The notes below the pieces were generated by a model. That model did no database searches. It was given only the letters and a program-made list of their open reading frames with translations, and had not been told where the DNA came from. Source: Hypanus sabinus (taxonomy: Eukaryota). From it: a stretch of 64,000 nucleotides of DNA. Of the stretch, positions 7,801 through 32,384 are shown piece by piece (within the stretch, counting starts at the first letter, position 1; every line of letters starts with the position of its first letter). The position numbers and the translations under genes are program-made. The DNA lies in assembly GCF_030144855.1 (NCBI RefSeq), contig NC_082716.1, positions 39,680,001 to 39,744,000 of the forward strand, written 5' to 3'.

Positions 7801-10070
7801 AAAGTTTTATCTCTTGGATCAAATTGCCGTATTTGTGTCCTCTGCCTCTGTTTTAATTAATTTTCAGAAATCCCAGTTATTTAACCTCAAACGTGGCACC
7901 CGTCAGGGATGCCCTTTAAGTCCCTTTCTCTTTGATTTGGCTATAGAACCTTTGGCGTTAGCATTGCGAAATTGTCCTGAATTGACCGGGATTTGGAGAG
8001 GGGGTGTTGAGCATAAAGTTTCTCTTTATGCTGATGACTTATTACTTTTTCTTTCAAATCTGTCTACATCCTTACCTCCAATGTTTTCACTTTTTGATCA
8101 GTTTCTCTGGCTATAAACTTAATTTACATAAGAGCGAACTTTTCCCAATTAATAAAGAAGCACAAGAATTAACATTTCGTGATCTCCCTTTTAAAGTAGT
8201 TCATAATCAATTTACCTATCTTGGGATTACAGTCACAAGGAAGTTTAAAGACCTCTTTCGTGAAAATTTTGCCAATCTTTCATATACTATAAACAGAGTC
8301 TGTTACAATGGTCACTTCTATCTATGTCTTTGGTAGATTGTATTAATGTTGTTAAAATGTATGTTCTCCCTAAACTTTTATATTTATTTCAATCAATCCC
8401 AATTTTTATTCCTAAATCTTTTTTTGATTCCTTAGACTATTATTCTGTCATATCTGTGGAAGAATAAGCGCTCTAGAATTAATAAAGTTTATCTCCAAAA
8501 ACCTAAAAAAGAGGGTGGCATGGCTTTACCTAACTTTCGTTTATATTATTGGGCAGCCAATATACATTGTGCTACCTTTTGGTCTTTTTTCCATAGTCAA
8601 CCCGAGTGCCCTAATTGGGTGGCAATGGAGTTGAGCTCCACTAAAGAATTATCTGTCTCTGCACTTCTTGGCTCTGTACTCCCTAGTAGTTTGTCCAGAT
8701 TAATAGTTAATCCTCTTGTTAGACACACTTTGCGTATATGGGCTCAGTTTAGGAAATGTTATGGTTTCCATGGTTTTTCCTTTTCTAGCCCTATCTTACA
8801 TAATCACCTTTTTTTACCTACTACGTATGACTCAGCATTCCATGATTGGTATAGGAAGGGCATTAGACATTTTGAAGATCTTTTTATTGATAATCGCTTC
8901 GCTTCTTTTCAACAGCTCTCTGCTAAGTTCAATCTGCCCAATGCTAATTTTTTTTAGATATCTCCAAATTAGACACTTTATTAATCCTTTAATTCCTAAC
9001 TTCCCTGAAATGCCTGAGAAAAATGTAATGAACTTATTTCTTTCTACTAATCCACTAGGTAAAGGTTTAATATCATTTATTCATGATAAATTAGCAGCCT
9101 TATGACGCGCCCCTGTGGATAAAATTAAAATGGCATGGGAGCAGGATTTAAATACCTCCTTATCTGATGAGACTTGGGACTCGATTCTCAAATCGGTTAA
9201 TTCAACCTCTCTTTGTGCTCGCCATTGCCTTTTACAGTTTAAGATTGTTCATAGAGCCCATATGTCTAAATCTAAATTATCTCGATTTTACCCTAATATT
9301 AGTCCACTTTGTGATAAAAGCAAAAGGGGCGAGGCCTCTCTCATTCGTATGTACTGGTTTTGTCCTAGCTTGGAGAAATTTTGGAAAGATGTCTTCATAA
9401 CATTATCATATATTCTGAATCACCACCTAGAACCTAACCCTTTAATTGCTTTGTTCGGTTTCTGGGGTGAGACAGATTTACGTCTGAGTTCGACTAAGTG
9501 TCGAATATTATCTTTTGCCTCTCTCCTGGCTAGATGTTTAATCCTCCTTAGATGGAGAGATGTTGCCCCGCCCACACATGCTCAATGGCTTAACCATATT
9601 ATGGCCTGCTTAGACCTTGAAAAAATTCATTAATCAGTTCTTAATTCGGATTTAAAGTTCCATAAGGTCTGGGGACCTTTTATTGAGTACTTTCATAACC
9701 TTCCTCTTAACTAAGGTTTTTTTTTCCGGTCCCTTGCTTTCAGCTCCTTTTTTTTTGGTAGTAGGCATTAATATCTTCTGTTGCTAAGTGTATTTCCAGT
9801 TTTGGGGGTTTGATTGTCCTGATTTATATTCTCTATATTGTGTTGTGGTTGGTCTGGAGCTTTTTTTTGTTGCGGAGCTTGGGGAGGATACTAATTTTAC
9901 ATGTCTTCAATTTGGGTGCTTTCTCAATTATCTTTCTTTGTATCATATTATTATTGTATGTTTATTTTTGCACTGTATCAATGTTCTTCATTTTTTTATC
10001 TGTAGCTATGTAGAAAATTTATTTTAAAAACTAATAAAAAAAGTTTTCTTTTCTTAAATTTAAAAAAAAG
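4806..10070 (+). mobile_element. L1-clade LINE, 5'-truncated: ORF1 C-terminus, ~830-bp spacer, full-length but disrupted ORF2 (5929-9714), 3'UTR and A-rich tail
   Basis: ORF1-like peptide 4820-5098; ORF2 starts MVNTLKFVSWNVKGLN…LQETH, then GGDFN, SDH, KSPGPGG, DAEKTFD, RGTRQGCPLSP, YADD and a C-terminal Cys-rich motif; AATAAA ~10033 and A tract. Confidence 0.92.
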
Positions 10071-11188
10071 TAAGGAGGCACGGGATCCAAGGGGACCTTG
10101 CTTTGTGTATCCAGAATTGGTTTGCCCATAGAAAGCAAAAAGTAGTTGTAAACGGGTCATATTCTGCATGGAGGTTGGTGGCCAGTGGTGTGCCTTAGGG
10201 ATCTGTTCTGGGACCCCTTCTCTTCATGATTTTTATAAATGACCTGGATGAGGAAGTGCAGGGATAGGTTAGTAAATTTTCTGATGACACAAATGTTGGG
10301 AGTGTCGTGGATAGGGTGGAGGGCTGTCAGAGGTTACAGTGGGACATTGATAGGATGCAAAACTGGGCTGAGAAGTGGCAGATGGAGTTCAACCCAGATA
10401 AGTGTGAGGTACTTCATTTGGGTAGGTCAATTATGATGGCAGAATACAGTATTAATGGTAAAACTGTTGGCAGTATGGAGGATCAGCAGGGTCTTGGAGG
10501 TCCGAGTCCATAGGACACTCAAAGCTGCTGCGCAGGTTGACTCTATGGTTAAGAAGGCGTATGGTGCACTGGCCTTCATCAGCTGTGGGATTAAGTTTAA
10601 GAGCTGAGGGGTAATGTTACAGCAATATAGGACTCTGGTCAGACCCCACATGGAAGTACTGTGCTCAGATCTGGTCATCTCACTACGGGAAGGATGTGGA
10701 AACTATATCAAAGGTGCAGAGGAGATTTACAAAGATGTTGCCTGGATTGGGGAGCATGTCTTATGAGAATAGGATGAGTGAACTTGGCCTTTTCTCCTTG
10801 GAGCGACAGAGGATGAAATGTGACCTGATAGAGATGTATAAGATGATGAGAGGCATTGATCGTGTAGATAGTCAGAGGCTTTTTCCCAAGGCTGAAATGG
10901 CTAACACGAGAGGGCAGAGTTTTAAAGTACTTGGAAGTAGGTACAGAGGAGATGTCAGAGGTAAGTTTTTTTTTGCAAAGCATGGTGAGTGCATGGAATA
11001 GGCTGCTAGCGACAGTGGTGGAGGCGGATACAATAGGGTCTTCTAAGAGACTCCTGGATAAGTATATGGACCTTAGAAAAGTATTGGGCTATGGGTAACC
11101 CTAGGTAATTTCTAAAGTAAGTACATGTTCAGCACAGCTTTGTGGGCTGAAGGGCCTGTGTTGTTTTTGTAGTTTTTCTAGGTTCTGT

Positions 11189-13320
11189 GGACTGATATGA
11201 TGAAAACTGTGTTGACATCAAACAACTGCTAGATGAGAAACATCGTCTTCACAAAGCTTTCCTCACTGACCCCAAGTTCATCTCATAGAAGGAAGCTTTC
11301 AATAACAGACTAAGTACAGTACAACACAAACTGTGCCAGGTGCAAGATTTCCGATTGATTAATAAAGCTGATGTGATCCAGTCATATGGAGATAGGTATG
11401 ATTTAAAGAAATTCTATGCTGCACTTAAAGAAGTCTATGGCCCCACATCATCAGGATCATCCCCTCTCCTTGGTGCTAATGAGAACATGCTGATCATGGA
11501 GCAAGAAAATTCTTCATGGAATTAATGTGCTGAGCACTTTAACAGTGTTCTGAATCATCCTTCAACAACAAATGACAAAGCCATTGATCACCTGCCCCAA
11601 GTACCTATCAATGAAGCACTGGATATTCCACTGACATTAGCAGAGGCCTGGAAGGTAATACCTCAGCTTTCTAGTGGCAAATTGCCTGGATCAGATGTAA
11701 TACTAGCTGAGGCCTAAAAGGAAGGCAGAGCAATGCTAGAGAAAAGCTCTTCCAACTTATGTGGCAGTAACAGAAAATTCCACAAGAATTTAAAGATATA
11801 TCTATAAGTAAACCAACAATCCGATGCCAACTATTGGGGAATATCCTTGCTGTCTATCACAGGCAAAAACTTAACCAGACTTCTTCTCAACTGTCTCACT
11901 TCATACTGTGACTGGGGACTCCTATCAGAGTGCCAATATGGATTCTGGAAAGAACGTGGAACAATCAACATGGTGCTTGCTGCAAGGCAACTGCAAGGGA
12001 TGTCAGGAGCAAGACACTGACCTATCTAAGGCCTTCGATATTATTAGCAGCAAGGGTCTGTGGGAGATCACAGCGAAGTATGGATGCCCATGGTGTAGTA
12101 TTTCCATGATGGCATGCAAGCTAGGTTTCAGGACAATGGTGAGACATCCAAGCCCTTCCCTGTCTTAGAATGGGTTCAAGCAGGGCTGTGTCTTGGTGCT
12201 AATGCTATTCAGTCTGATGTTTTCCATTAGGTTAACTGATGTTTTCTGAGGCAAAAATGTGGACATCGGCATCAGATTCTGCACTGATGGGAAACTGTTC
12301 AATCTCAGGTGGCTCCAAGCAAAAACTAAGATTATGACAGAATCTGGGCTCCTTTTGCTGATGACTGCGCCCTCAAGGCTGGTTAAAAATTAATATGCAA
12401 CACTGTGTCAACAAGTTTACTGATGCATGTACCAACTTCGGGCTTACCATCAACACCAAGACTGAAGTAATGCATCAAGTCAGTTTTAGGGAAATCATAC
12501 ATTTAGGCAAACAGTCAAAGACTCAACCCAATGAAGAGATTCACATGTCTTGGCAGCACACCATCCCAGAACATTGTCATTGGTGATGAAGTGCCAGGAT
12601 TGCCAAGGCAAGTGTAGCCTTCAGCAGACTTTATACAAATGTCTGAATCAGAAGAGGCACAAGTCTACAGATGAAGTTGAAGGTGTATAGGGCCATAATA
12701 CTTCCCATTCTGCTTTAAGCCTACAAAATATGGACAGTGTGCCAATGGCACCCAAAGAAACTGAACCATTTGCACACATGCCGCATCAGAAATCTCCTCA
12801 ACATTAAGTGGCAAGGCAAGATCCCTGACACTGATGTACTTACCAAAGCTGGCCTTCCCAGTACCTACACTATCCAGATCCAGTCCCAGTCACATTGAGC
12901 AGGCCACGTATCTTTACGCCAGACCATTGGCTGCTTTATGGGAAAACTACAGAAAGGAAATTGTTGCCAAGGAGGCCAAAGGAAATGCTATGAAGACACC
13001 TTGAAAGCTTTACTAAAAGCCTTTAGCATCAATCCGGACATATGGGGACATACTGCTCAGGATTGGGTTGAGTGGCACTCTACCCTTCATAAGGGTGCAG
13101 TGACACAAGGCAATAAGGACAACTGCAACAAAGACATAGGCTGGCCAGGAAAGCCCAAGTCAGCAACCCCCAACCCAAGGAGGCTGATATCTTTTGTCCA
13201 CACTGCCAAAGAACATTTCAAGCATGGATTGCCTCTACCCTCAGACCAGTTCAGCCCCCACAAATTGCAGATGACTAGAGTGGCTCTCATCTTTGCACGA
13301 TGGACAAACAAACAAGTAAC
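11189..13320 (+). mobile_element. RTE (BovB-like) LINE, 3' part with degenerate RT
   Basis: Resumes the KHxDW(F/Y)DEN motif broken at 3103; ALKEVYGPTS, DLSKAFD, QGCVL, FADD, GLTIN, GGQRKCYED motifs. Confidence 0.85.
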
Positions 13321-13895: not shown

Positions 13896-14516
13896 CTATC
13901 AAATACAAAAACAGTTTTAATTGTATTTAAGTGAGATGAGTAAAATAAATCTTGCAAATACATATACAATTAAGGGAAGCTCATTTGGTAACTATATATA
14001 AATTCTATTTGACCACCATTTTAATGACCATCTTATGTAAGGATGTCGAAGAAATTTACCAAAGTCATCCCAGGGACGAGAGATTTTGGTTAAGAGAACA
14101 TATGGGAGAAACGAGGATCATTCTCTTTTATTTGAATATGGTGATGTGTGATCCAGAAGCTTCTTCAGAAGTCAAGCACAAGGGACTAATCAAGGATACA
14201 GATCAGGCAGCGAGGAATAGCAATGTACGGCATGGTCTGGCAAGGTACAGCATGTAACAATGGACTTGTTCTCATGCTCTTTCTTTATACCATAAACCAG
14301 TCTGAACCACTGAGATAAGGGGACTCGCCATTGATAATAGAACACAGTAGAAAAGTACTGAGTTACAGTGCCATAACACTTCAGGCTTTACAAAGCAAAA
14401 TGTAGAAATATAGAACTAAATAGATCGAAGTTACAAATGTTTACAAACATAAGCAAATGTAAAAACTGAAACTACAAGAAAAACAATTTTCAATTCCAAA
14501 GTGCAGGATAAAAAAG

Positions 14517-15241
14517 TGTAACCCCCTGGGTCACCTCAGGCTCACTCAGCTCGTTCTCGTCTGGGGGAGCTGCCTTCGGCCCCGCCAAACTGGGTAATCA
14601 GCTGGTGTGGATGCTGTGTGATGTCCCCGCCTCGCCCAAAAACAGACAGTACACCATATGCGATTAAATGAGTACAATTTATAAAGGTTACTATAACCAA
14701 GTGATTAATAACGATACAGTATATATGAAGAGAAAATTAAAGAAAAGGCGCCAAACTTATCAAAGTCCAAACCTCTTCGTGCACAACCGTTGGAGCTCAA
14801 TTACTGAAGTCTTCTGGCCACCATTCGATCCCCTCCGAACTCCTCGACTCGCAGCTCAGGACCCTCTGAACTCCTCGACTCGCAGCTCAGGACCCTCCGA
14901 ACTCCTCGACTCTCCAAACAGCTCAGGACCCTCCGAGTGGTCAACCAAGCACATCCAGCTTCATCCCCCCCCCCCGGAGAATCTCCCGGCCTTGGACCCC
15001 CCTTTGGGGTCCGATCCTCGCCCAGCTTAGAGCATTGCGTCCTCTCTCTCGACCCCCTCGCGCCGATCTGCCCAAAAGCCCGTCAACAAAAGCTTACAGA
15101 CTCAGAAGAAAGAACATTAATCCCCATTTGGTTTACAAAGGAATACCATTCTCGTTATCAGTAAATTAGCATTCCTGCTAGTTAACAAAAAGAAACCCTT
15201 TCCCAACAATAACAAAGAAAATAAAGAAACCCCCCTTTACA
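14517..15241 (-). repeat. 3' LTR (725 bp) with 3 copies of a 31-36-bp internal tandem unit
   Basis: Direct repeat of 17860-18551; termini TGTAA…TTACA. Confidence 0.95.
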
Positions 15242-15254
15242 CACTTCCTCCACC
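15242..15254 (-). promoter_or_regulatory. Polypurine tract
   Basis: Minus strand GGTGGAGGAAGTG abutting the 3' LTR. Confidence 0.8.
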
Positions 15255-15513
15255 AAATAAAAGTCATGTCCTCATGACTACTAAATAACTCGCCACCTTT
15301 CCTGCCAACACACCGTAACCCAAGCACAAACAGTGACATCTCCTCCCCACACAGTAACCCTCACGCCCTGTTCCTCAGGCGCTACTTAGGCCAACTATCT
15401 GGGAGTTCCCTAACCCTTCTGAGGCCTCCGTACCCCCTCACCTAAACCCTTCAGGCTCGGACACAACTGGGGATACCTTGGGCCCACTACCAACTCCTCT
15501 CTCAACCTCTCAC

Positions 15514-16524
15514 TCATGCCCCACACTGCACACAGCTAACCCTCCCCGCTACACCTGACTCAATGGGAGAAGGGCCAAAGGTCTCTTCCTCAATCGAGGG
15601 AAAGTCAGCAAAAGGCAGCATGTACCACACATCCAGCACATCATCCATCGAATCTGTATTCTTCCTCATTCCTGTGATCGGTAGCTGCTGTTTGATCTTC
15701 TCCAAATGGAAACACGTGGCCTGCACTGCTCCCGCAGTCTCTTCAGCCTCCTGTTCAGTATTCACTGCACTTCTCTCCAGCTTTTTCTTCCTCATGACTT
15801 CTTCCAGATCAACTTTCAGGTTTTGCACTTCATTTGAACTGTCGATGGTCATCTTCAGGTTCCCTTCAAGCTTCCGCTTCTCTCTTCTGAGATTCATCTG
15901 TAATTTCTTCACCTCTGCAAACTCCCCTCTCCGGGTTCTCAGTTTGCTATTACCCTCAGTCAGACAACTTTCTTCATTCTCTCCAACTTGTAAGTCTTCC
16001 GAATGGTTCCAGATCACTTTCTCCAGTCTCTCCGTCTTCATTTCAAACTTGATTCCGTAGAGACAGTCTCTCACGAGCTGCGTCCTTCGCCAGCCCTGGC
16101 ACGTGTCCCGAAAACACTTTAACTCGGTAGTTCTCAGCTGCTCCTGCAACGACCTCACTTCATATTCTCCTGAGGCAAATCCAAATACCAAGAGATCATC
16201 CACATACACCAAAACTCCAAACGCCTCCACATCCCCTATGGTCTTCCACCTGCCCAGCAGGAAGGTTGCAAGGGCTCCAGATATGCCCTGTGGCATCTTT
16301 TCGGACCCGAAGACTCCTAGGGAATTTATAACGGCCGTCTTCTCCTTGTTGGCCCCACTCATCGGGATCTGGCAATATCCACTCCTCAGATCCAGCACCT
16401 TAAACCACTTCACACCACTCAGACAGGCCATCGCCTCTCTGGCCCTCAGGGCCATATTCTGGTCACTGACAGTGCGCCTCTTCAACGCAATATAATCCAT
16501 ACACACGCTGCCTACATCTTCCAT
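15514..16524 (-). CDS. Chimeric ORF: degenerate Gypsy RT, short RNase H remnant, myosin-heavy-chain-like coiled coil, Gypsy-type acidic tail (336 aa)
   Basis: aa1-145 RT motifs incl. YVDD (16195-16206); aa150-164 [12 protein letters not shown] resembles RNase H DYLYGxxFxVxTD; aa~166-268 myosin-rod-like ([17 protein letters not shown]…[11 protein letters not shown]). Confidence 0.7.
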
Positions 16525-16630
16525 GGCTGTAGGGGCCAGTCACCGCAACCTCTCTCTCTCCGAGGTGTCTTCAGCAGTCAACTCCCCTCCCTTGTGGTAT
16601 TTCACAGCGTCCACGAAGAGGGTCTCACCC

Positions 16631-17779
16631 TCAGATACTTCCCCCAGGCCAAACCACCACTGGCTCTTTGTTTGAATTCGGTATCAGCCCAATGCTGCTA
16701 CACACGTCCGCACAAGCAGCTCGAAACCCTGGGTGCATCGACAATGCCTCCAAACAGCGCTCACCCGCCTCCTCCGGGCAGACTCCCAAGCGCACCAGCA
16801 GGATTTTGGTTCTCTCTAGAACCGAAACGCTGCCCGTCTCAACAGGGTCCGGACACATCAGCATTAACGATTCATGAACCTCAGTCTCCTCCACATTTGC
16901 CTCTAAGAACTCCATTTTCACTGACCAACAACCGTTGTCTGGATAATCACCGGCACTGGTACCCCGAATCTCCAGTGTCCTCAATGTCATCAAGGGTAAA
17001 TGCTTCCAATAACGGTTATGAAACAAACTGTACAGCAACTTCACCGGCACCCCGGTGCCGAGGATGGCTTTAACTTGACTTCCATCCATCCGTAACAACA
17101 CCTGTGCACGTGGCCCCTCTAAGCCTTCAGGAATAGGGTCTGTTCCTTTCGGGAGTTCCTTGGTACATTGCTGGGAACGTGCTCCCCCAGAGACCCCAAG
17201 CTGTTCCCCCACTGGGCCTCCTCTAAGTTTCCCGACACCTCTCGAATCAACGGAACAACTGATCCCCTTGACAGATCCCCTTGGCACCACAAGCAATTTA
17301 TCTGCCCCCCTAGGCAAAAAGGGATACCCTAAAAACTTCCCACCAATCTCCTGCCACAGATATAATAAGCCCCCCAGCTGCGGCATTTGACTTCCAGTCG
17401 AACCACACGCATTTTCCCACACTTTCCCAGAACTGGCAGCGGTCACTTCGAGGTAATTGCGCCCGACAGTTCTAACAAAGTCACCAGCCCGCCTACTCAA
17501 ACTTTCAACCCGTCCCTGTCGCTTTTCCTCAGCCAAGCACTGCCACTCACCCAACAACTGAGAGGTCCGCTCCGCCCACGCTTCCGCCCCTTTAGGGCTG
17601 GACATTATTCCAACAACCGGGCGGAGCTCACCACTGCTGAAACATCCCAACCCGTCACTCCTCAATCTCCAAACAGTACGGACAACCCATGGTCCCACCA
17701 CCATTTCGTCAGCCAACAGCAACCACCCCATCCAACACACACACAGCGATAACCAGCAATCGCACACCCACAAAGGCAC
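16631..17779 (-). CDS. Degenerate PNMA-like Gag fused to an inactive aspartic protease (382-aa ORF)
   Basis: [19 protein letters not shown] is PNMA/Gypsy-Gag-like; [10 protein letters not shown]…KAILGTG shows the protease DTG motif changed to GTG. Confidence 0.7.
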
Positions 17780-17838
17780 ACCAGCTCCGCCGCAGACACA
17801 ATTTAAAGAGGGTGATCACACAGCTTCCACAGAAATCA

Positions 17839-17856
17839 ATCCCGGACGAGCCCCCA
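17839..17856 (-). promoter_or_regulatory. Primer-binding site, tRNA-Pro
   Basis: Minus strand TGGGGGCTCGTCCGGGAT, 3 nt from the 5' LTR; the 18-nt complement of the tRNA-Pro 3' end. Confidence 0.92.
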
Positions 17857-17859
17857 CAA

Positions 17860-18551
17860 TGTAACCCCCTGGGTCACCTCAGGCTCACTCAGCTCGTTCT
17901 CGTCTGGGGGAGCTGCCTTCGGCCCCGCCAAACTGGGTAATCAGCTGGTGTGGATGCTGTGTGATGTCCCCGCCTCGCCCAAAAACAGACAGTACACCAT
18001 ATGCGATTAAATGAGTACAATTTATAAAGGTTACTATAACCAAGTGATTAATAACGATACAGTATATATGAAGAGAAAATTAAAGAAAAGGCGCCAAACT
18101 TATCAAAGTCCAAACCTCTTCGTGCACAACCGTTGGAGCTCAATTACTGAAGTCTTCTGGCCACCATTCGATCCCCTCCGAACTCCTCGACTCGCAGCTC
18201 AGGACCCTCCGAACTCCTCGACTCGCAGCTCAGGACCCTCCGAGTGGTCAACCAAGCACATCCAGCTTCATCCCCCCCCCCCCCCGGAGAATCTCCCGGC
18301 CTTGGACCCCCCTTTGGGGTCCGATCCTCGCCCAGCTTAGAGCATTGCGTCCTCTCTCTCGACCCCCTCGCGTCGATCTGCCCAAAAGCCCGTCAACAAA
18401 AGCTTACAGACTCAGAAGAAAGAACATTAATCCCCATTTGGTTTACAAAGGAATACCATTCTCGTTATCAGTAAATTAGCATTCCTGCTAGTTAACAAAA
18501 AGAAACCCTTTCCCAACAATAACAAAGAAAATAAAGAAACCCCCCTTTACA
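17860..18551 (-). repeat. 5' LTR (692 bp) with 2 copies of the 31-bp unit
   Basis: Direct repeat of 14517-15241; adjacent to the PBS. Confidence 0.95.
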
Positions 18552-18637
18552 AAAGCATTCTAAATGGACAATGAGGCAATGAGAGCTGATAAGCGAAGTC
18601 AAAGACAGAATAAAAGCAAAAGAGAGGGCATACAATA

Positions 18638-19585: not shown

Positions 19586-21949
19586 TATAGCAATAATTAA
19601 TAGGAAACTAGAGAATTAGGCAGCTTTTAAAAACCACCAGAAGGCAACTGAGAAAGCAATAAGGAGAGGAAAAATTGAAAAAATGAAGGTAAGCTAGCCA
19701 ATAATATAAAAGAGAGGATATTGGACAACTAGAAAAAGACCATGGAGCGGTAGCAATGGCAAACACAGAAATGGCTGACAAACTCAGTCAGTATTTTGCA
19801 TCAGCTTTCACTGTGGAAGATACCACAAGCATATGCCAGAAATTCAAGACTGTCAAGAGGCAGAAGTGAGTATAGTTGCTATCACTAAGGACAAGGTGCT
19901 TGGGAAGCTGAAAGGTCCAAAGATAGATAGGTCACACCTTAAGAAGGGAGTGAGGCAGAAGAAAGGAAATTATTGGCCAGTTAGCCTGACTTTAGTTGGT
20001 AAGATTTTGGAGCACATTATTAAGGATTAGAGTTTGGTGTACTTGGAGGCACCTGACAAAAAAAGCCGATGTCAGCATGGTTTTCTTAAGGGGAAATCTT
20101 GCCGAACAAATCTGTTGGAATTCTTTTGAGGAAATAACAGGCATGATAGACCAAGAAGCATTGGCTGATGTTGTGTACTTGGATTTTAAGAAGGCCTTTG
20201 ACAATGTGCAACACGAGGCTGTTAAATAAGTGCCTATGGTATCACAGGAAGATACTAGCATGGATAGATTAGCTGACTGGCAGAAAGCAAAGAGTGGAAA
20301 TAAAGAGACCTTTTAGCTGCCAGTTCAAGTGATGTCCTGCAGGAGTTGGTGTTGGGACCACTTCTTTTCACAGTATACCTTTTGTCAACAATTTGGATGA
20401 TGGAATCGATAGTTTTGTGGCCAAGATTGCAGATGGTATGAAGGTACACGGAGGGACAGGTAATGTTGAGGATACAGTAGGACATGGTCAGATTATGAGA
20501 ATGGGCAAAGAATTGGCAAATGGAATACAGTCTAGAAAAATGTACAGTCATGCATTTAGGTAGAAGGAATAAAGGTGGAGACTTCTTCTAAATGGGAAGA
20601 AAATTCAGAAATCAGGGGTGCAAAGGTGTTCGGGAGTCTGCATGCAAGATTTCCTAAATGTTAACTTGCAGGTCGAGTCAGTGGCAAGGAAAGGAAATGC
20701 AATGTCAGCATTAATTTCAAGAGGACTAGAATACAAAAGCAAGGATATAATGCTGAGGTTTTTTAAGACATTGTTCAGACTGCACTTAGCAGGATTGTGA
20801 GTAGTTTTCAGGCTCCTTATCTAAGAAAGGAAGTGTTTGCATTGGAGAGGTTCATGAGAATGATCCCGGGAAGGAAAAGGTATGAGGAGCACAATGCCTC
20901 TGGGCCTGTTCACGCTGGAGTTCAGAATGAGTGGCGTCTCATAGAAACTTATTGAATATTGAATGCCCTAGGTCAGGGGTCAGCAACCTTTACCACTGAA
21001 AGAGCCACTTGGACCCGTTTCCCACAGAAAAGAAAACACTGGGAGCCGCAAAACCCGTTTGACATTTAAAATGAAATAACACTGCATACAACGTTTTGTT
21101 TTGCCTTTATGCTATGTATAAACAAACTATAATGTGTTGCATTTATGAAATCGATGAACTCCTGCAGAGAAAACGAAATTACATTTCTGCATGCAACAAA
21201 AACATTTTGAACTCCGAAAAAAAGACGTTGGGTTGAAGGTTACTTTTAAGTAAAATACTCAACGTCTATATGAGTCCTTCATGTATTTATGAAAAACGCC
21301 AAACTTAAATTTGCCGCCAGCAGCAAACCAAAAATAACGTCAGCCAGCTGTCAACCTGAAAAATAAAAGGACTATTTCACTGAACAATGAAAACATATAA
21401 ATATACGTAAAATAATAGGCAATTAAAATATTTATCATACTTGTTCAGGTTGACTCACACCTGACAATGCAGTCGTATTCAGTAGGGATGGATCGATGCT
21501 TAGGGGAGTGACCGGGAAGGATAATGTGTTTTTTTCCTCTCTGAACTCACAGAAGCGTTTCCCAAACGATGTTTGCTTTGCGATGATTGCAGAATGTAAA
21601 TACTCCGAATTTATCATGTCGTGACCTTGTTTGAACTCTCTCAAATTGGGGAAGTGAGACAATGTGCCTTTCTGTAAATCTCTGGCAAGCAACGTCAACT
21701 TGCGCTCGAATGCCAAAACATCCTCCAACATGTGCAGGGCTGTACGTCCTTACCCCGTTGAAGAGCTGTGTTCAGCGTGTTCAGGTGCGCTATCATGTCT
21801 ACCATGAAGTGTAGCTTTTCCAGCCACTCTGACTGTTCCAGCTCAGGAAAGTTGAGCCCTTTGCTGCCCAGGAATGTTTTCACTTCTTCCAGACACGCGA
21901 CAAAGCGTTTCAGCACCTCCCCTCTGGACAGCCAGCAATAAAAACACGT

Positions 21950-22164
21950 TGTAGCGGTGTGCTACACGCAGTCAGTAAACTGCAGTCAAAGATAGCTTTA
22001 TTCGAACTAAACAGCCTTGCTTTTAAGCCTCCCTCAACCCGCCCCCCATGGGCGCGGATGCTGCAAAAGACACGTACTCACAAACCCCCGTAGGCTATCT
22101 CCCTTAGCCTGAACGCTGGCTAATTGTGAGCCGGTTCGGATGTGTCAGGAAATGGGTCGCCACA
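21950..22164. mobile_element. Solo LTR A (215 bp) inside the hAT element
   Basis: TGTAGCG…CGCCACA termini; ACGT TSD (21946-21949, 22165-22168). Confidence 0.85.
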
Positions 22165-22269
22165 ACGTCTTATTTAGATTGTACAAGATCACCATAATCT
22201 TCAAATTTAGATTTACATTTCAAAAACTAACAAACTAACATAAAATACATTTTAATTAAATACTGACCA

Positions 22270-22484
22270 TGTAGCGGTGTGCTACACGCAGCGCTAAAAT
22301 TACGACACGGAGTCGGTAACTGCAGTCGAAGGAAAAAACTTTATTCAAAATCTTCAGCCTCACTTTTAAGCCTCCCTCAACCTGCCCCCCATGGCGCAGA
22401 GGCTCCAAAGCTCTGTGCTCGCAAACCCCCGTAGGCTATCTAATTGTGAGCAGGTTCGGATGTGCCAGGAAAAGGGTCGCCACA
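22270..22484. mobile_element. Solo LTR B (215 bp), related to A, inside the hAT element
   Basis: TGTAGCG…CGCCACA termini; ACCA TSD (22266-22269, 22485-22488). Confidence 0.85.
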
Positions 22485-23652
22485 ACCAATTATTTCCCAA
22501 GGCAACAGGGAGCCGCAGCACAGACGTAAAAGAGCCACATGTGGCTCCGGAGCCGCGGGTTGCCGACCCCCGCCCTAGGTAGAGTGGACATGAAGAGGAT
22601 GTTTCCTATAGAGGGAGGAATCTAGGACTAGAGGCCACAGGCTCTTAATTAGAAACATGTCCCTTTGAAACAGAGATGAGGAGTAATTTTGTTAGTGAAA
22701 GGGTGGTGAATCTGTGAAATTCATTGCCACAGACAGCTGTGGCGGTCAAGTCATTGGGTATATTTATATTGGAGTTTGATAGGTTTAAGTAAGGGTGCAA
22801 GGGCGTCAAAGGTTACAGGGAGAATGCAGGAGAATGGGGTATAACAATAAAGGATGATAGATCAGCTACAATATAACGGCAGAGCAGACTCGAAGGCCGA
22901 AAGCCTAATTCTGTTCCTAAGTCTTATGAAAAACAATGATCTAGATCCTAATCCAACACTTTGGAACAAAAAGAAATTGCAAAGGATGTATTAGATGTAA
23001 TAGATGTATTAAAAATTATGAAAGGTGCTGGAGTGGATAGAGATAACTGTTCCCACCAGAATGAACCAAGAAGTGGGGAATATAGCATTACTAGGACTGG
23101 CAAAGAAACAAAAGAGACACAAGAAAAATTCTGTGATTAGATTAAGGGGCACACTGCCAGGAGTAGTAGTGAAGGCAGATCCAATTGCAAAATTCAAAAG
23201 GGAACTGGATAAATACCTGAATGGAAAAAATTCACAGGACTTTCAAAAGGAAGGAGAGTAGAAGTATATGGATTGTTGTTGCATTGATCTGGCACTAAGT
23301 GGATTATGAACTTTTCTTTGGAATGTGTCTTTAAATTATCATGGTTTCTTGGGAATTATAATTGATACTCTGGCTGCAACTAAACCCCCTGTAAATAAAT
23401 TAACCAGCCAACTGCGATATTTGTCGCTTCATATTGGTTTCAGTGGGCTTGCAGCTATATTTTTCACAGGACTTCTGTTTTAAGAGATGTGTAGGCCTCT
23501 GCCAAAAAAGCTGAACACACCACACCAGCACCAGTCAGACTCCTAAGATACTTCTACACCTTTGATTTCAGTACTGCTTAATCCTGGTTTGACTATGAAG
23601 CTCTGATGTCAGCAATGAAGTTACCTATTACCAGAGGTTATATGACTACTGA

Positions 23653-31986: not shown

Positions 31987-32060
31987 CAACCTGTTCGGCG
32001 CCTTCACTAAAACCGTTAGGCGCGTGCGAAGCGCCCGTCGACACCTCCCGCACGTGCTCC
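31987..32060 (-). other. PRDX1: Probable non-coding exon 1 of PRDX1
   Basis: In the CpG island; minus-strand donor TTG|GTGAGG at 31986; exon 2 has an upstream acceptor so a 5' exon is required; TSS not determinable. Confidence 0.6.
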
Positions 32061-32080
32061 TCCGCGCGGCGAGCACTGGC

Positions 32081-32222
32081 CGCGCCCCCGCCCCTCCGCG
32101 CGCCCCCGCCCCTGCCCCTCCCCCTGCCCCTCCGCGCGCCCCCGCCCCGCCCCGCCCCCTGCCCCTCCGCGCGCCCCCGCCCCTGCCCCTCCCCCTCCCC
32201 CTCCGCGCGCCCCCGCCCCGCC
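32081..32222. repeat. C-rich minisatellite (CCCCTCCGCGCGCCCCCGCCCC-like units)
   Basis: 4-5 imperfect units; G-rich on the minus strand. Confidence 0.9.
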
Positions 32223-32384
32223 GGGCGCTCCACCCAGCGTCCGTCTTCCCTCCTAAAAACGAGTGTGACTCGCTATCGACAAGTTGAGTTGGGAAAAGGC
32301 TTTATTTCCTTAAAATGTACACGGGAAACCTTTGAAACCAGCGTGACGGCGACGTAAGGCTGGCGGCAGCATCTAATTGGTCGG

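Follow-up and report, generated by a model that had tools for sequence, protein, structure and literature searches.

Acutely transforming retroviruses carry a host mRNA in place of pol and fused to gag, are helper-dependent, and have a cargo that is selected for function. Among retrotransposons, LTR-mediated retrocopies consist of a partial spliced mRNA that lies in sense orientation between discontinuous halves of an LTR element and is able to move again non-autonomously (Tan et al. 2016, PMC5131818). The sections of that study on which we draw describe the architecture in fly, mosquito, zebrafish, chicken and mammals in few copies: two fly retrocopies were found at more than one site, five of seven zebrafish retrocopies were LTR-mediated, and 96 old fly retrogenes had no LTR remnants (PMC5131818). 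Maize Bs1 is described as an old LTR element with transduced host exons in one hybrid ORF and copies with common switch points; one to five copies and three donor genes are given for it, and it has been reported to be transcribed and translated (PMC5131818, PMC13317346).

We analysed a stretch of 64,000 nucleotides from the genome of the stingray Hypanus sabinus (the window), in which a Gypsy LTR element of 4,035 nt (4.0 kb) occupies positions 14517-18551 on the minus strand. With a probability of roughly 0.88, we read it as a recent copy of a Gypsy family that lacks integrase together with most of its RNase H, the gap being filled in frame by a piece of a host MYH16-family gene without introns; this piece was probably acquired in a single event, when RT switched templates to a host mRNA packaged in the same particle, and since then it has likely travelled as passive cargo, moved in trans by a related autonomous Gypsy. 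The parts established by direct observation are the anatomy, the donor, the exon-exon junctions, the copy number, the chimera in three ray genera and the neutral amino-acid change. The features are as follows, with the host exons lettered Z and A to K.

14513..14516, plus strand: left target-site duplication, AAAG, with its second copy at 18552-18555
14517..15241, minus strand: 3' LTR, 725 nt, TG..CA, holding a 31-nt tandem repeat of variable copy number
15242..15254, minus strand: polypurine tract adjoining the 3' LTR
15514..15675, minus strand: remnant of the Gypsy Pol C-terminal acidic tail plus stop, 44% amino acid identity over 45 residues (E 1e-5) to the tail of the autonomous relative's ORF (query, family protein P0004)
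15676..15754, minus strand: captured myosin piece 3, host exon K (LMM), 77% DNA identity over 79 nt; a 912-nt in-frame deletion joins exon D to exon K
15755..15915, minus strand: captured myosin piece 2, host exons C and D, 84% over 161 nt; junction C/D at 15787 (host intron 2.7 kb)
15916..16033, minus strand: captured myosin piece 1, host exons A, B and the start of C, 79% over 118 nt; junctions A/B at 16008 and B/C at 15921 (host introns 17.6 and 28.0 kb), followed by a 12-nt deletion
16042..16068, minus strand: 9-codon remnant of RNase H that shares its frame with RT and myosin and matches an RNase H stretch of the autonomous relative
16120..16524, minus strand: decayed reverse transcriptase (RT), YVDD retained, fingers and thumb partly deleted
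16631..17815, minus strand: decayed gag (PNMA-type capsid part; PF14893 E 1.2e-4, 22 bits against a cut-off of 25) and protease region (46% amino acid identity to the autonomous protease region), with an altered protease catalytic motif
17839..17856, minus strand: primer-binding site, its surroundings identical in 29/30 nt in the autonomous copy L149
17860..18551, minus strand: 5' LTR, 692 nt, TG..CA
18552..18555, plus strand: right target-site duplication, AAAG

The hallmarks of Ty3/Gypsy elements are thus all present, namely paired TG..CA LTRs, a target-site duplication, a primer-binding site and a polypurine tract, the last three read from the sequence and the 5' LTR from alignment of the LTR pair. 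The domain order is gag-protease-RT-RNase H with a Gypsy-type RT, at PNMA and RVT_1 scores just below the Pfam cut-offs. Neither Pfam nor the comparison with the autonomous relative gave an integrase match in the element, and RNase H is confined to the 9-codon remnant. The primer-binding site is presumably of the tRNA-Pro type; no tRNA gene was found within the window. The two LTRs, which an earlier note on this DNA had called near-identical, differ by 2 substitutions, a 36-nt indel in the internal tandem repeat and a 3-nt indel in a C run (99.7% in the LTR-pair comparison), and the window element is a young, recently inserted copy. Around it, ORF translations judged by eye contain decayed LINE-like RT fragments (8700-13300 and 19700-22600) and a DNA-transposase-like remnant (21435-22093). 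Further away, a GC-rich low-complexity repeat at 32049-32244 lies in a kilobase of 57% GC and is promoter-like.

The earlier note had drawn attention to an ORF at 15514-16524 in which a Gypsy RT continues into myosin without a stop. This frame is present with the peptide as quoted, and it extends to 16539 (16539-15514, minus strand, ATG at 16524); 5' of it the frame of the window copy is interrupted, relative to P0004, by a frameshift near 16650 and a stop at 16540-16542. Pfam placed the RT (PF00078) at residues 31-120 of the ORF with E 1e-6 and 29.0 bits against a cut-off of 29.6, and a structure-database search matched Ty3 RT with E 4e-12. Two boundaries had to be revised. The RNase H remnant exists but measures about 9 codons (16068-16042) rather than 15 residues and is preceded by about 8 codons of RT thumb. 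Similarly, the myosin segment is where it had been seen (15721..16029), but its limits are about 16033-15676, 45 nt beyond the noted end, because another myosin piece, host exon K, precedes the Gypsy tail. The acidic tail after the myosin had been correctly recognised as Gypsy-type.

A rod segment of this kind could in principle resemble myosin by chance, as a generic coiled coil, or be a normal part of Pol in this clade. Pfam indeed assigned no myosin family to the 103-residue myosin piece and returned only Rab5-bind at E 0.022. However, the myosin match is specific: residues 172-271 of the ORF matched residues 998-1101 of myosin-7 in the PDB with E 7e-7, compared with E 0.5-0.8 for keratin and other coiled coils. 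At the DNA level, the insert matched host exons with E 3e-34 across their junctions, and its alignment score of 365 compares with a maximum of 40.5 in 200 codon shuffles. Since the related autonomous ORF contains no such segment either, both versions of this explanation are refuted, and the match goes beyond coiled-coil composition.

We next consider the structure of the insert relative to the host gene. Aligned in the three blocks listed above, the window copy crosses three exon-exon junctions (A/B, B/C and C/D) with the introns absent. Only 6 nt of exon C follow junction B/C before the deletion begins; the older copy L096 spans this junction without a gap. Thirteen older copies, 82-89% identical to the host exons, jointly cross seven junctions, Z/A, A/B, B/C, C/D, E/F, F/G and J/K, which span 171 kb of genomic DNA (E/F is crossed in L096 only, beside a 6-nt gap). 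The captured mRNA therefore covered at least exons Z to K, and the proposal of a spliced, intron-free host mRNA inside a Gypsy element is borne out by the alignment to the host gene.

The insert is flanked by discontinuous halves of the element. At the 5' joint, the window element and L096 pass from the RNase H remnant to the end of exon Z, and L090, L093 and L095 from the RT thumb to the middle of exon Z; the RNase H remnant is longer in L096 and in the protein record P0035 than in the window element. Because this joint varies among subfamilies, the present joints are secondary and the capture points have been lost. The subfamilies also retain different, partly non-overlapping myosin exons. 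With the original junctions gone, one could propose that a processed myosin pseudogene made by a LINE entered a Gypsy copy at the DNA level, or was fused to it by recombination, and was trimmed afterwards. Such an event would likewise yield an intron-free insert, LINE remnants are abundant in the window, and intron-free myosin-tail matches exist elsewhere in the genome. Yet the insert has neither poly(A) nor a target-site duplication around it and lacks the myosin 3' end. It derives from the interior of the gene, lies in the sense direction, keeps the frame on both sides and replaces pol rather than interrupting it, which fits the features described for LTR-mediated retrocopies in the sections consulted of Tan et al. 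2016 (PMC5131818). We consider the pseudogene route improbable and retain capture by template switching.

The search with host myosin exons brought up the donor, a gene at G000:C42:45,270,000-45,503,718 on the minus strand (45.27-45.50 Mb; loci read, L083-L088, L103-L115, L151 and L152), 0.6 Mb from the fast-myosin cluster and on another contig than MYH16 (C27). Twelve exons were mapped (Z and A-K), with AG/GT ends in 11/11 tested and the boundary of exon J shifted by 1 nt; the rod-coding frame is open over 540 codons, and introns reach 38 kb. All of the element proteins compared (8/8) are closest to this C42 paralog (59-75% identity, where all other host myosins reach 27-53%), and the tree joins them to it at UFBoot 100. 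For the window insert, the identity is 59% over 147 columns versus 36% to the C27 gene. In a tree of only 13 host and reference rows, projected on the donor as reference (which shortens the donor's branch) and omitting a partial row from C42:44.41 Mb, the donor rod groups with ray MYH16 and lamprey myosin-16-like proteins at UFBoot 100; its sisterhood with ray MYH16 has a value of 68. Donor and ray MYH16 are 58% identical over 535 rod residues.

Other host myosins were tried as donors. We take the gene at C27:39.5 Mb to be MYH16 from its MYH16-type N-terminus; besides the lower identity to the window insert, it gave 42% over 45 residues and a DNA match of E 0.056 only, and was rejected. The fast-cluster, MYH7-like and C27:168 Mb myosins were ruled out by protein identities and the tree. 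The MYH16-like donor named in the earlier note is thus right as to family, but MYH16 itself is not the source. As side observations, a solo LTR of the myosin-bearing family (84%) lies at G000:C27:39,581,168-39,581,831, some 10 kb downstream of the final exon found for MYH16; given the copy number, this is likely chance. At G000:C42:44,405,349-44,414,867 (plus strand), an N-terminal myosin exon that contains a stop lies 9 kb from a diverged rod exon; no motor exon matched there, and the two are possibly a decayed member of the fast cluster. Finally, myosin-tail matches with stops at G000:C18:144.80 Mb, C17:50.04 Mb, C30:69.22 Mb and C29:79.71 Mb (L077-L079 and L082), three of which exceed single-exon length, are likely processed pseudogenes of non-muscle myosin.

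Four head and neck queries located no motor, converter or IQ exon near the donor; they matched MYH16, MYH7-like, fast-cluster and non-muscle genes, and the first two rod exons of the donor were found. The first rod exon contains an ATG in frame and is preceded by an AG acceptor, which implies that an upstream exon exists; the sequence read extends 7.3 kb upstream. Judged by its exons, the donor may be a motor-less myosin rod gene. Vertebrate MYH16 is described as a single gene in the account consulted (PMC6402096); the donor resembles it as a member of the MYH16 clade and differs in being a second gene, with long introns and no motor exon found. In literature outside subscription journals, we found no description of a second ray MYH16 gene or of a myosin-bearing Gypsy element. 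The donor hints at a second, possibly motor-less MYH16-family gene in rays.

What the myosin replaced can be read from an autonomous relative. A fish Gypsy RNase H query gave 22,904 first-look candidates in the ray genome, of which 150 were scored and five copies read whole (L146-L150). Their LTR pairs are 99.8-100% identical, and four of the five have ORFs of 1988-2008 codons, the fifth having a broken frame. This family (e.g. G000:C24:178,951,666-178,958,824) is young and very abundant, its gag is of the PNMA type, and its coding sequence forms one ORF of about 1988 codons. Translated from one copy, the ORF reads gag-protease-RT-RNase H-integrase-tail without myosin. The 729-aa chimera P0004 aligns to it on both sides of the insert (gag 30%, protease region 46%, RT 47%, tail 44%), which puts the myosin in the place once taken by the whole of integrase and most of RNase H. 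This agrees with the position assigned to it earlier and answers whether myosin is a normal part of the autonomous partner's Pol. Autonomous and myosin-bearing families have the first 4 and last 6 LTR bases and the type of primer-binding site in common, and their tails are similar; their DNA is only 64-69% identical, and the LTRs share 132 nt at 73%. Given this low identity, the autonomous family is a relative and a possible helper rather than the proven parent. A protein search for a helper with the element's own RT returned only family members and one tilapia Gypsy Pol (47% RT identity).

The myosin-bearing family is large. One 28-mer from the insert has 676 exact matches across the genome (reversed control, 0), which makes at least 676 copies, and a DNA search of the ray's own genome with the insert gave 1169 first-look candidates, of which the 40 scored were all 99-100% identical. 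Among copies selected by their myosin match, which are not random samples, all 29 of the other young loci fetched carry RT, myosin and LTR together at 94-97.5% identity to the window element. The 14 older copies fetched via the host exon search are 71-91% identical to it in the longest blocks, with LTR pairs at about 80-97.5% (8 of 9 alignable). Many dispersed copies of one deleted structure with young LTR pairs are hence present in Hypanus sabinus. The idea of a non-autonomous family that kept moving long after capture is supported by the 676 exact matches and by LTR pairs ranging from about 80% (old copies) to 99.7% (window). Two copies, L022 and L023 (G000:C18:145,236,235-145,242,861), are arranged in tandem with one LTR in common.

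The family also extends beyond this species. The closest protein record to the insert is 100% identical (Hypanus sabinus), followed by Hemitrygon akajei at 84% and Mobula at 51-53%, and the chimera with common internal deletions is found in protein records of Hemitrygon and Mobula, which with Hypanus makes three ray genera. Deletions B to F and G to J are alike in the Mobula records P0040 and P0034 and the old Hypanus copies L090, L093 and L095, and an internal deletion of exon A is common to Mobula P0035 and L096. Deletions common to both imply that the family diversified before the lineages parted, or moved between them.

We then asked how the captured sequence has evolved. Between the host gene and the young copy L024 (118 codons), 21.5 synonymous and 44.5 nonsynonymous changes compare with 20.9 and 42.8 expected from the observed spectrum, a dN/dS of about 1.0. 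For three old copies the myosin value is 0.72-0.93, including change on the host branch, and the whole ORF gives 1.1-1.3. Comparison of six old with 12 young copies column by column (503 codons, 128 changes) gave an omega of about 1.3, and variants among 30 young copies are neutral as well (omega 1.24 for private and 1.12 for shared variants). The spectrum is led by C>T and G>A and thus gives no support to a bias from A-to-G editing along the element lineage. The myosin protein of the element is thus unconstrained and drifts neutrally; the dN/dS comparison across copies that had been suggested shows no purifying selection acting on the protein of the cargo. The parallel with oncogene-capturing retroviruses drawn in the earlier note accordingly fails on function.

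These values bear on whether the Gag-RT-myosin fusion works as a protein, with its coiled coil oligomerising it or docking it on the helper particle or cytoskeleton and thereby explaining the success of the family. The fusion is in frame, 729-aa single-ORF chimera proteins are annotated at three loci, no stop is fixed, the myosin piece is retained in 44/44 copies examined, and the shared deletions in the insert are all multiples of 3 (8/8). Retention is in part a matter of choice, since the copies were found through myosin. The deletions are weak proof of selection, since 67-77% of 7-10-mer repeat pairs in host coding sequence are in frame anyway and microhomology would be expected to produce in-frame deletions. 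Heptads were not preserved either; of seven distinct deletion lengths, just one (126 nt) divides into complete heptads. Together with neutral dN/dS and with subfamilies that keep different myosin exons, this makes a functional fusion very improbable, and we continue to regard the myosin as passive cargo.

The reading frame is a separate matter. Among 126-128 majority-level substitutions, we counted 0 stops versus 4.7-4.9 expected (with 6 or 11 old copies), with P about 0.008-0.01; this is a rough estimate that ignores CpG context, and the 12 young copies had been picked for long frames. With all 30 young copies, there was still no majority stop in 671 codons. Conversely, 6 frameshifts and 5 stop variants are each common to 2-5 of the 30 young copies (3 of the stop variants at CpG codons), and only 5/30 are open over the stretch available. 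In 6/11 old copies, gag and pol are offset by one base relative to the young copies, which read through in one frame. A GGGAAAC heptamer, which we take to resemble a frameshift signal, occurs at the gag-protease border (window about 17222-17228, minus strand; also L090, L097 and L100), near this offset.

On this mixed evidence, the element may have conserved its reading frame and not its protein. The frame could be accidental, the RNA being packaged regardless of its coding state and fixed stops lacking by chance. The frameshifts and stops common to several young copies, the gag/pol offset and the sequence repeats that account for in-frame deletions speak for this, the stop count speaks against it, and so do Mobula records that read from RT into myosin, though gene predictors favour open frames. 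We give an accidental frame close to an even chance. That the persisting lineages are those whose RNA is translated to the end, with the frame kept and the protein not, we hold to be plausible at somewhat less than even odds. A more elaborate version, which we offer tentatively and think rather unlikely, is that of a selfish RNA: a Gypsy parasite that swapped integrase for a motor-less ray MYH16-family mRNA and whose gag, pol remnant, myosin and tail have stayed readable to the end over tens of millions of years (a 729-codon fusion in the youngest subfamily) because translation protects or packages the RNA, its domains decaying neutrally. The figure of tens of millions of years is the age of the stingray-manta split and not a dating from sequence. 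Whether non-autonomous LTR RNAs require an open frame is a question for which the ray family provides a test case in nature.

For the origin of the family, we propose that in the germline a Gypsy particle took up the donor mRNA along with its own RNA and that RT switched onto the mRNA and back, following the model in the consulted part of Tan et al. 2016 (PMC5131818). Capture would have happened once, before the stingray and manta lineages split, and would have taken in about 1.5 kb of mRNA, with exons Z-K as the minimum. The product would have retained both LTR ends, the primer-binding site and the polypurine tract, which would permit trans-mobilisation, possibly with the autonomous Gypsy family described above as helper. 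Repeated deletions, which are observed and were probably mediated by microhomology, then trimmed the insert into subfamilies. Sequencing contigs of four runs, whose RNA origin is a guess, cover all 30 bins of the element, and one X1 contig bridges the RT-myosin joint.

The family also affects annotation. In Hypanus and Mobula records, copies of the element go under the names 'MYH16', 'myosin-16-like' or 'myosin heavy chain', and predicted isoforms of TMEM192, SDHAF3 and GSTT2 have element copies fused into them. The records involved (P0004, P0039, P0026, P0023, P0035, P0040, P0076 and P0097) reflect either mis-annotation or exonisation, and annotated copies can fake a myosin gene expansion in rays. 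The main texts of two ray genome papers contain neither 'myosin' nor 'Gypsy'; the repeat libraries there may list the family.

Compared with known systems, the element resembles the PNMA-gag Gypsy elements of fishes, presumably the V-clade, in its PNMA-type gag, its RT (47% to tilapia Gypsy Pol), its TG..CA LTRs and its 4-bp target-site duplication; it differs in having no integrase, almost no RNase H, a decayed protease and RT, and a host cargo. Its layout is that of acutely transforming retroviruses, but the dN/dS of its cargo is about 1, it has no env, and it is a germline retrotransposon. The retrocopies described in the parts consulted of Tan et al. 2016 are young and few (PMC5131818), whereas the ray family numbers at least 676 copies within a single genome, is divided by its deletions into several subfamilies, occurs in three genera and has gone on inserting. 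It represents a vertebrate host-gene capture by an LTR element that founded a large, old and still inserting family rather than a rare retrocopy. It is an animal counterpart of Bs1 at more than 100 times the copy number, unlike Bs1 in having one donor, hundreds of copies and no amino-acid constraint. The mechanism, LTR-mediated retroposition, is thus a known one, as the consulted text of Tan et al. 2016 (PMC5131818) and maize Bs1 attest; the scale, the age and the donor are unusual.
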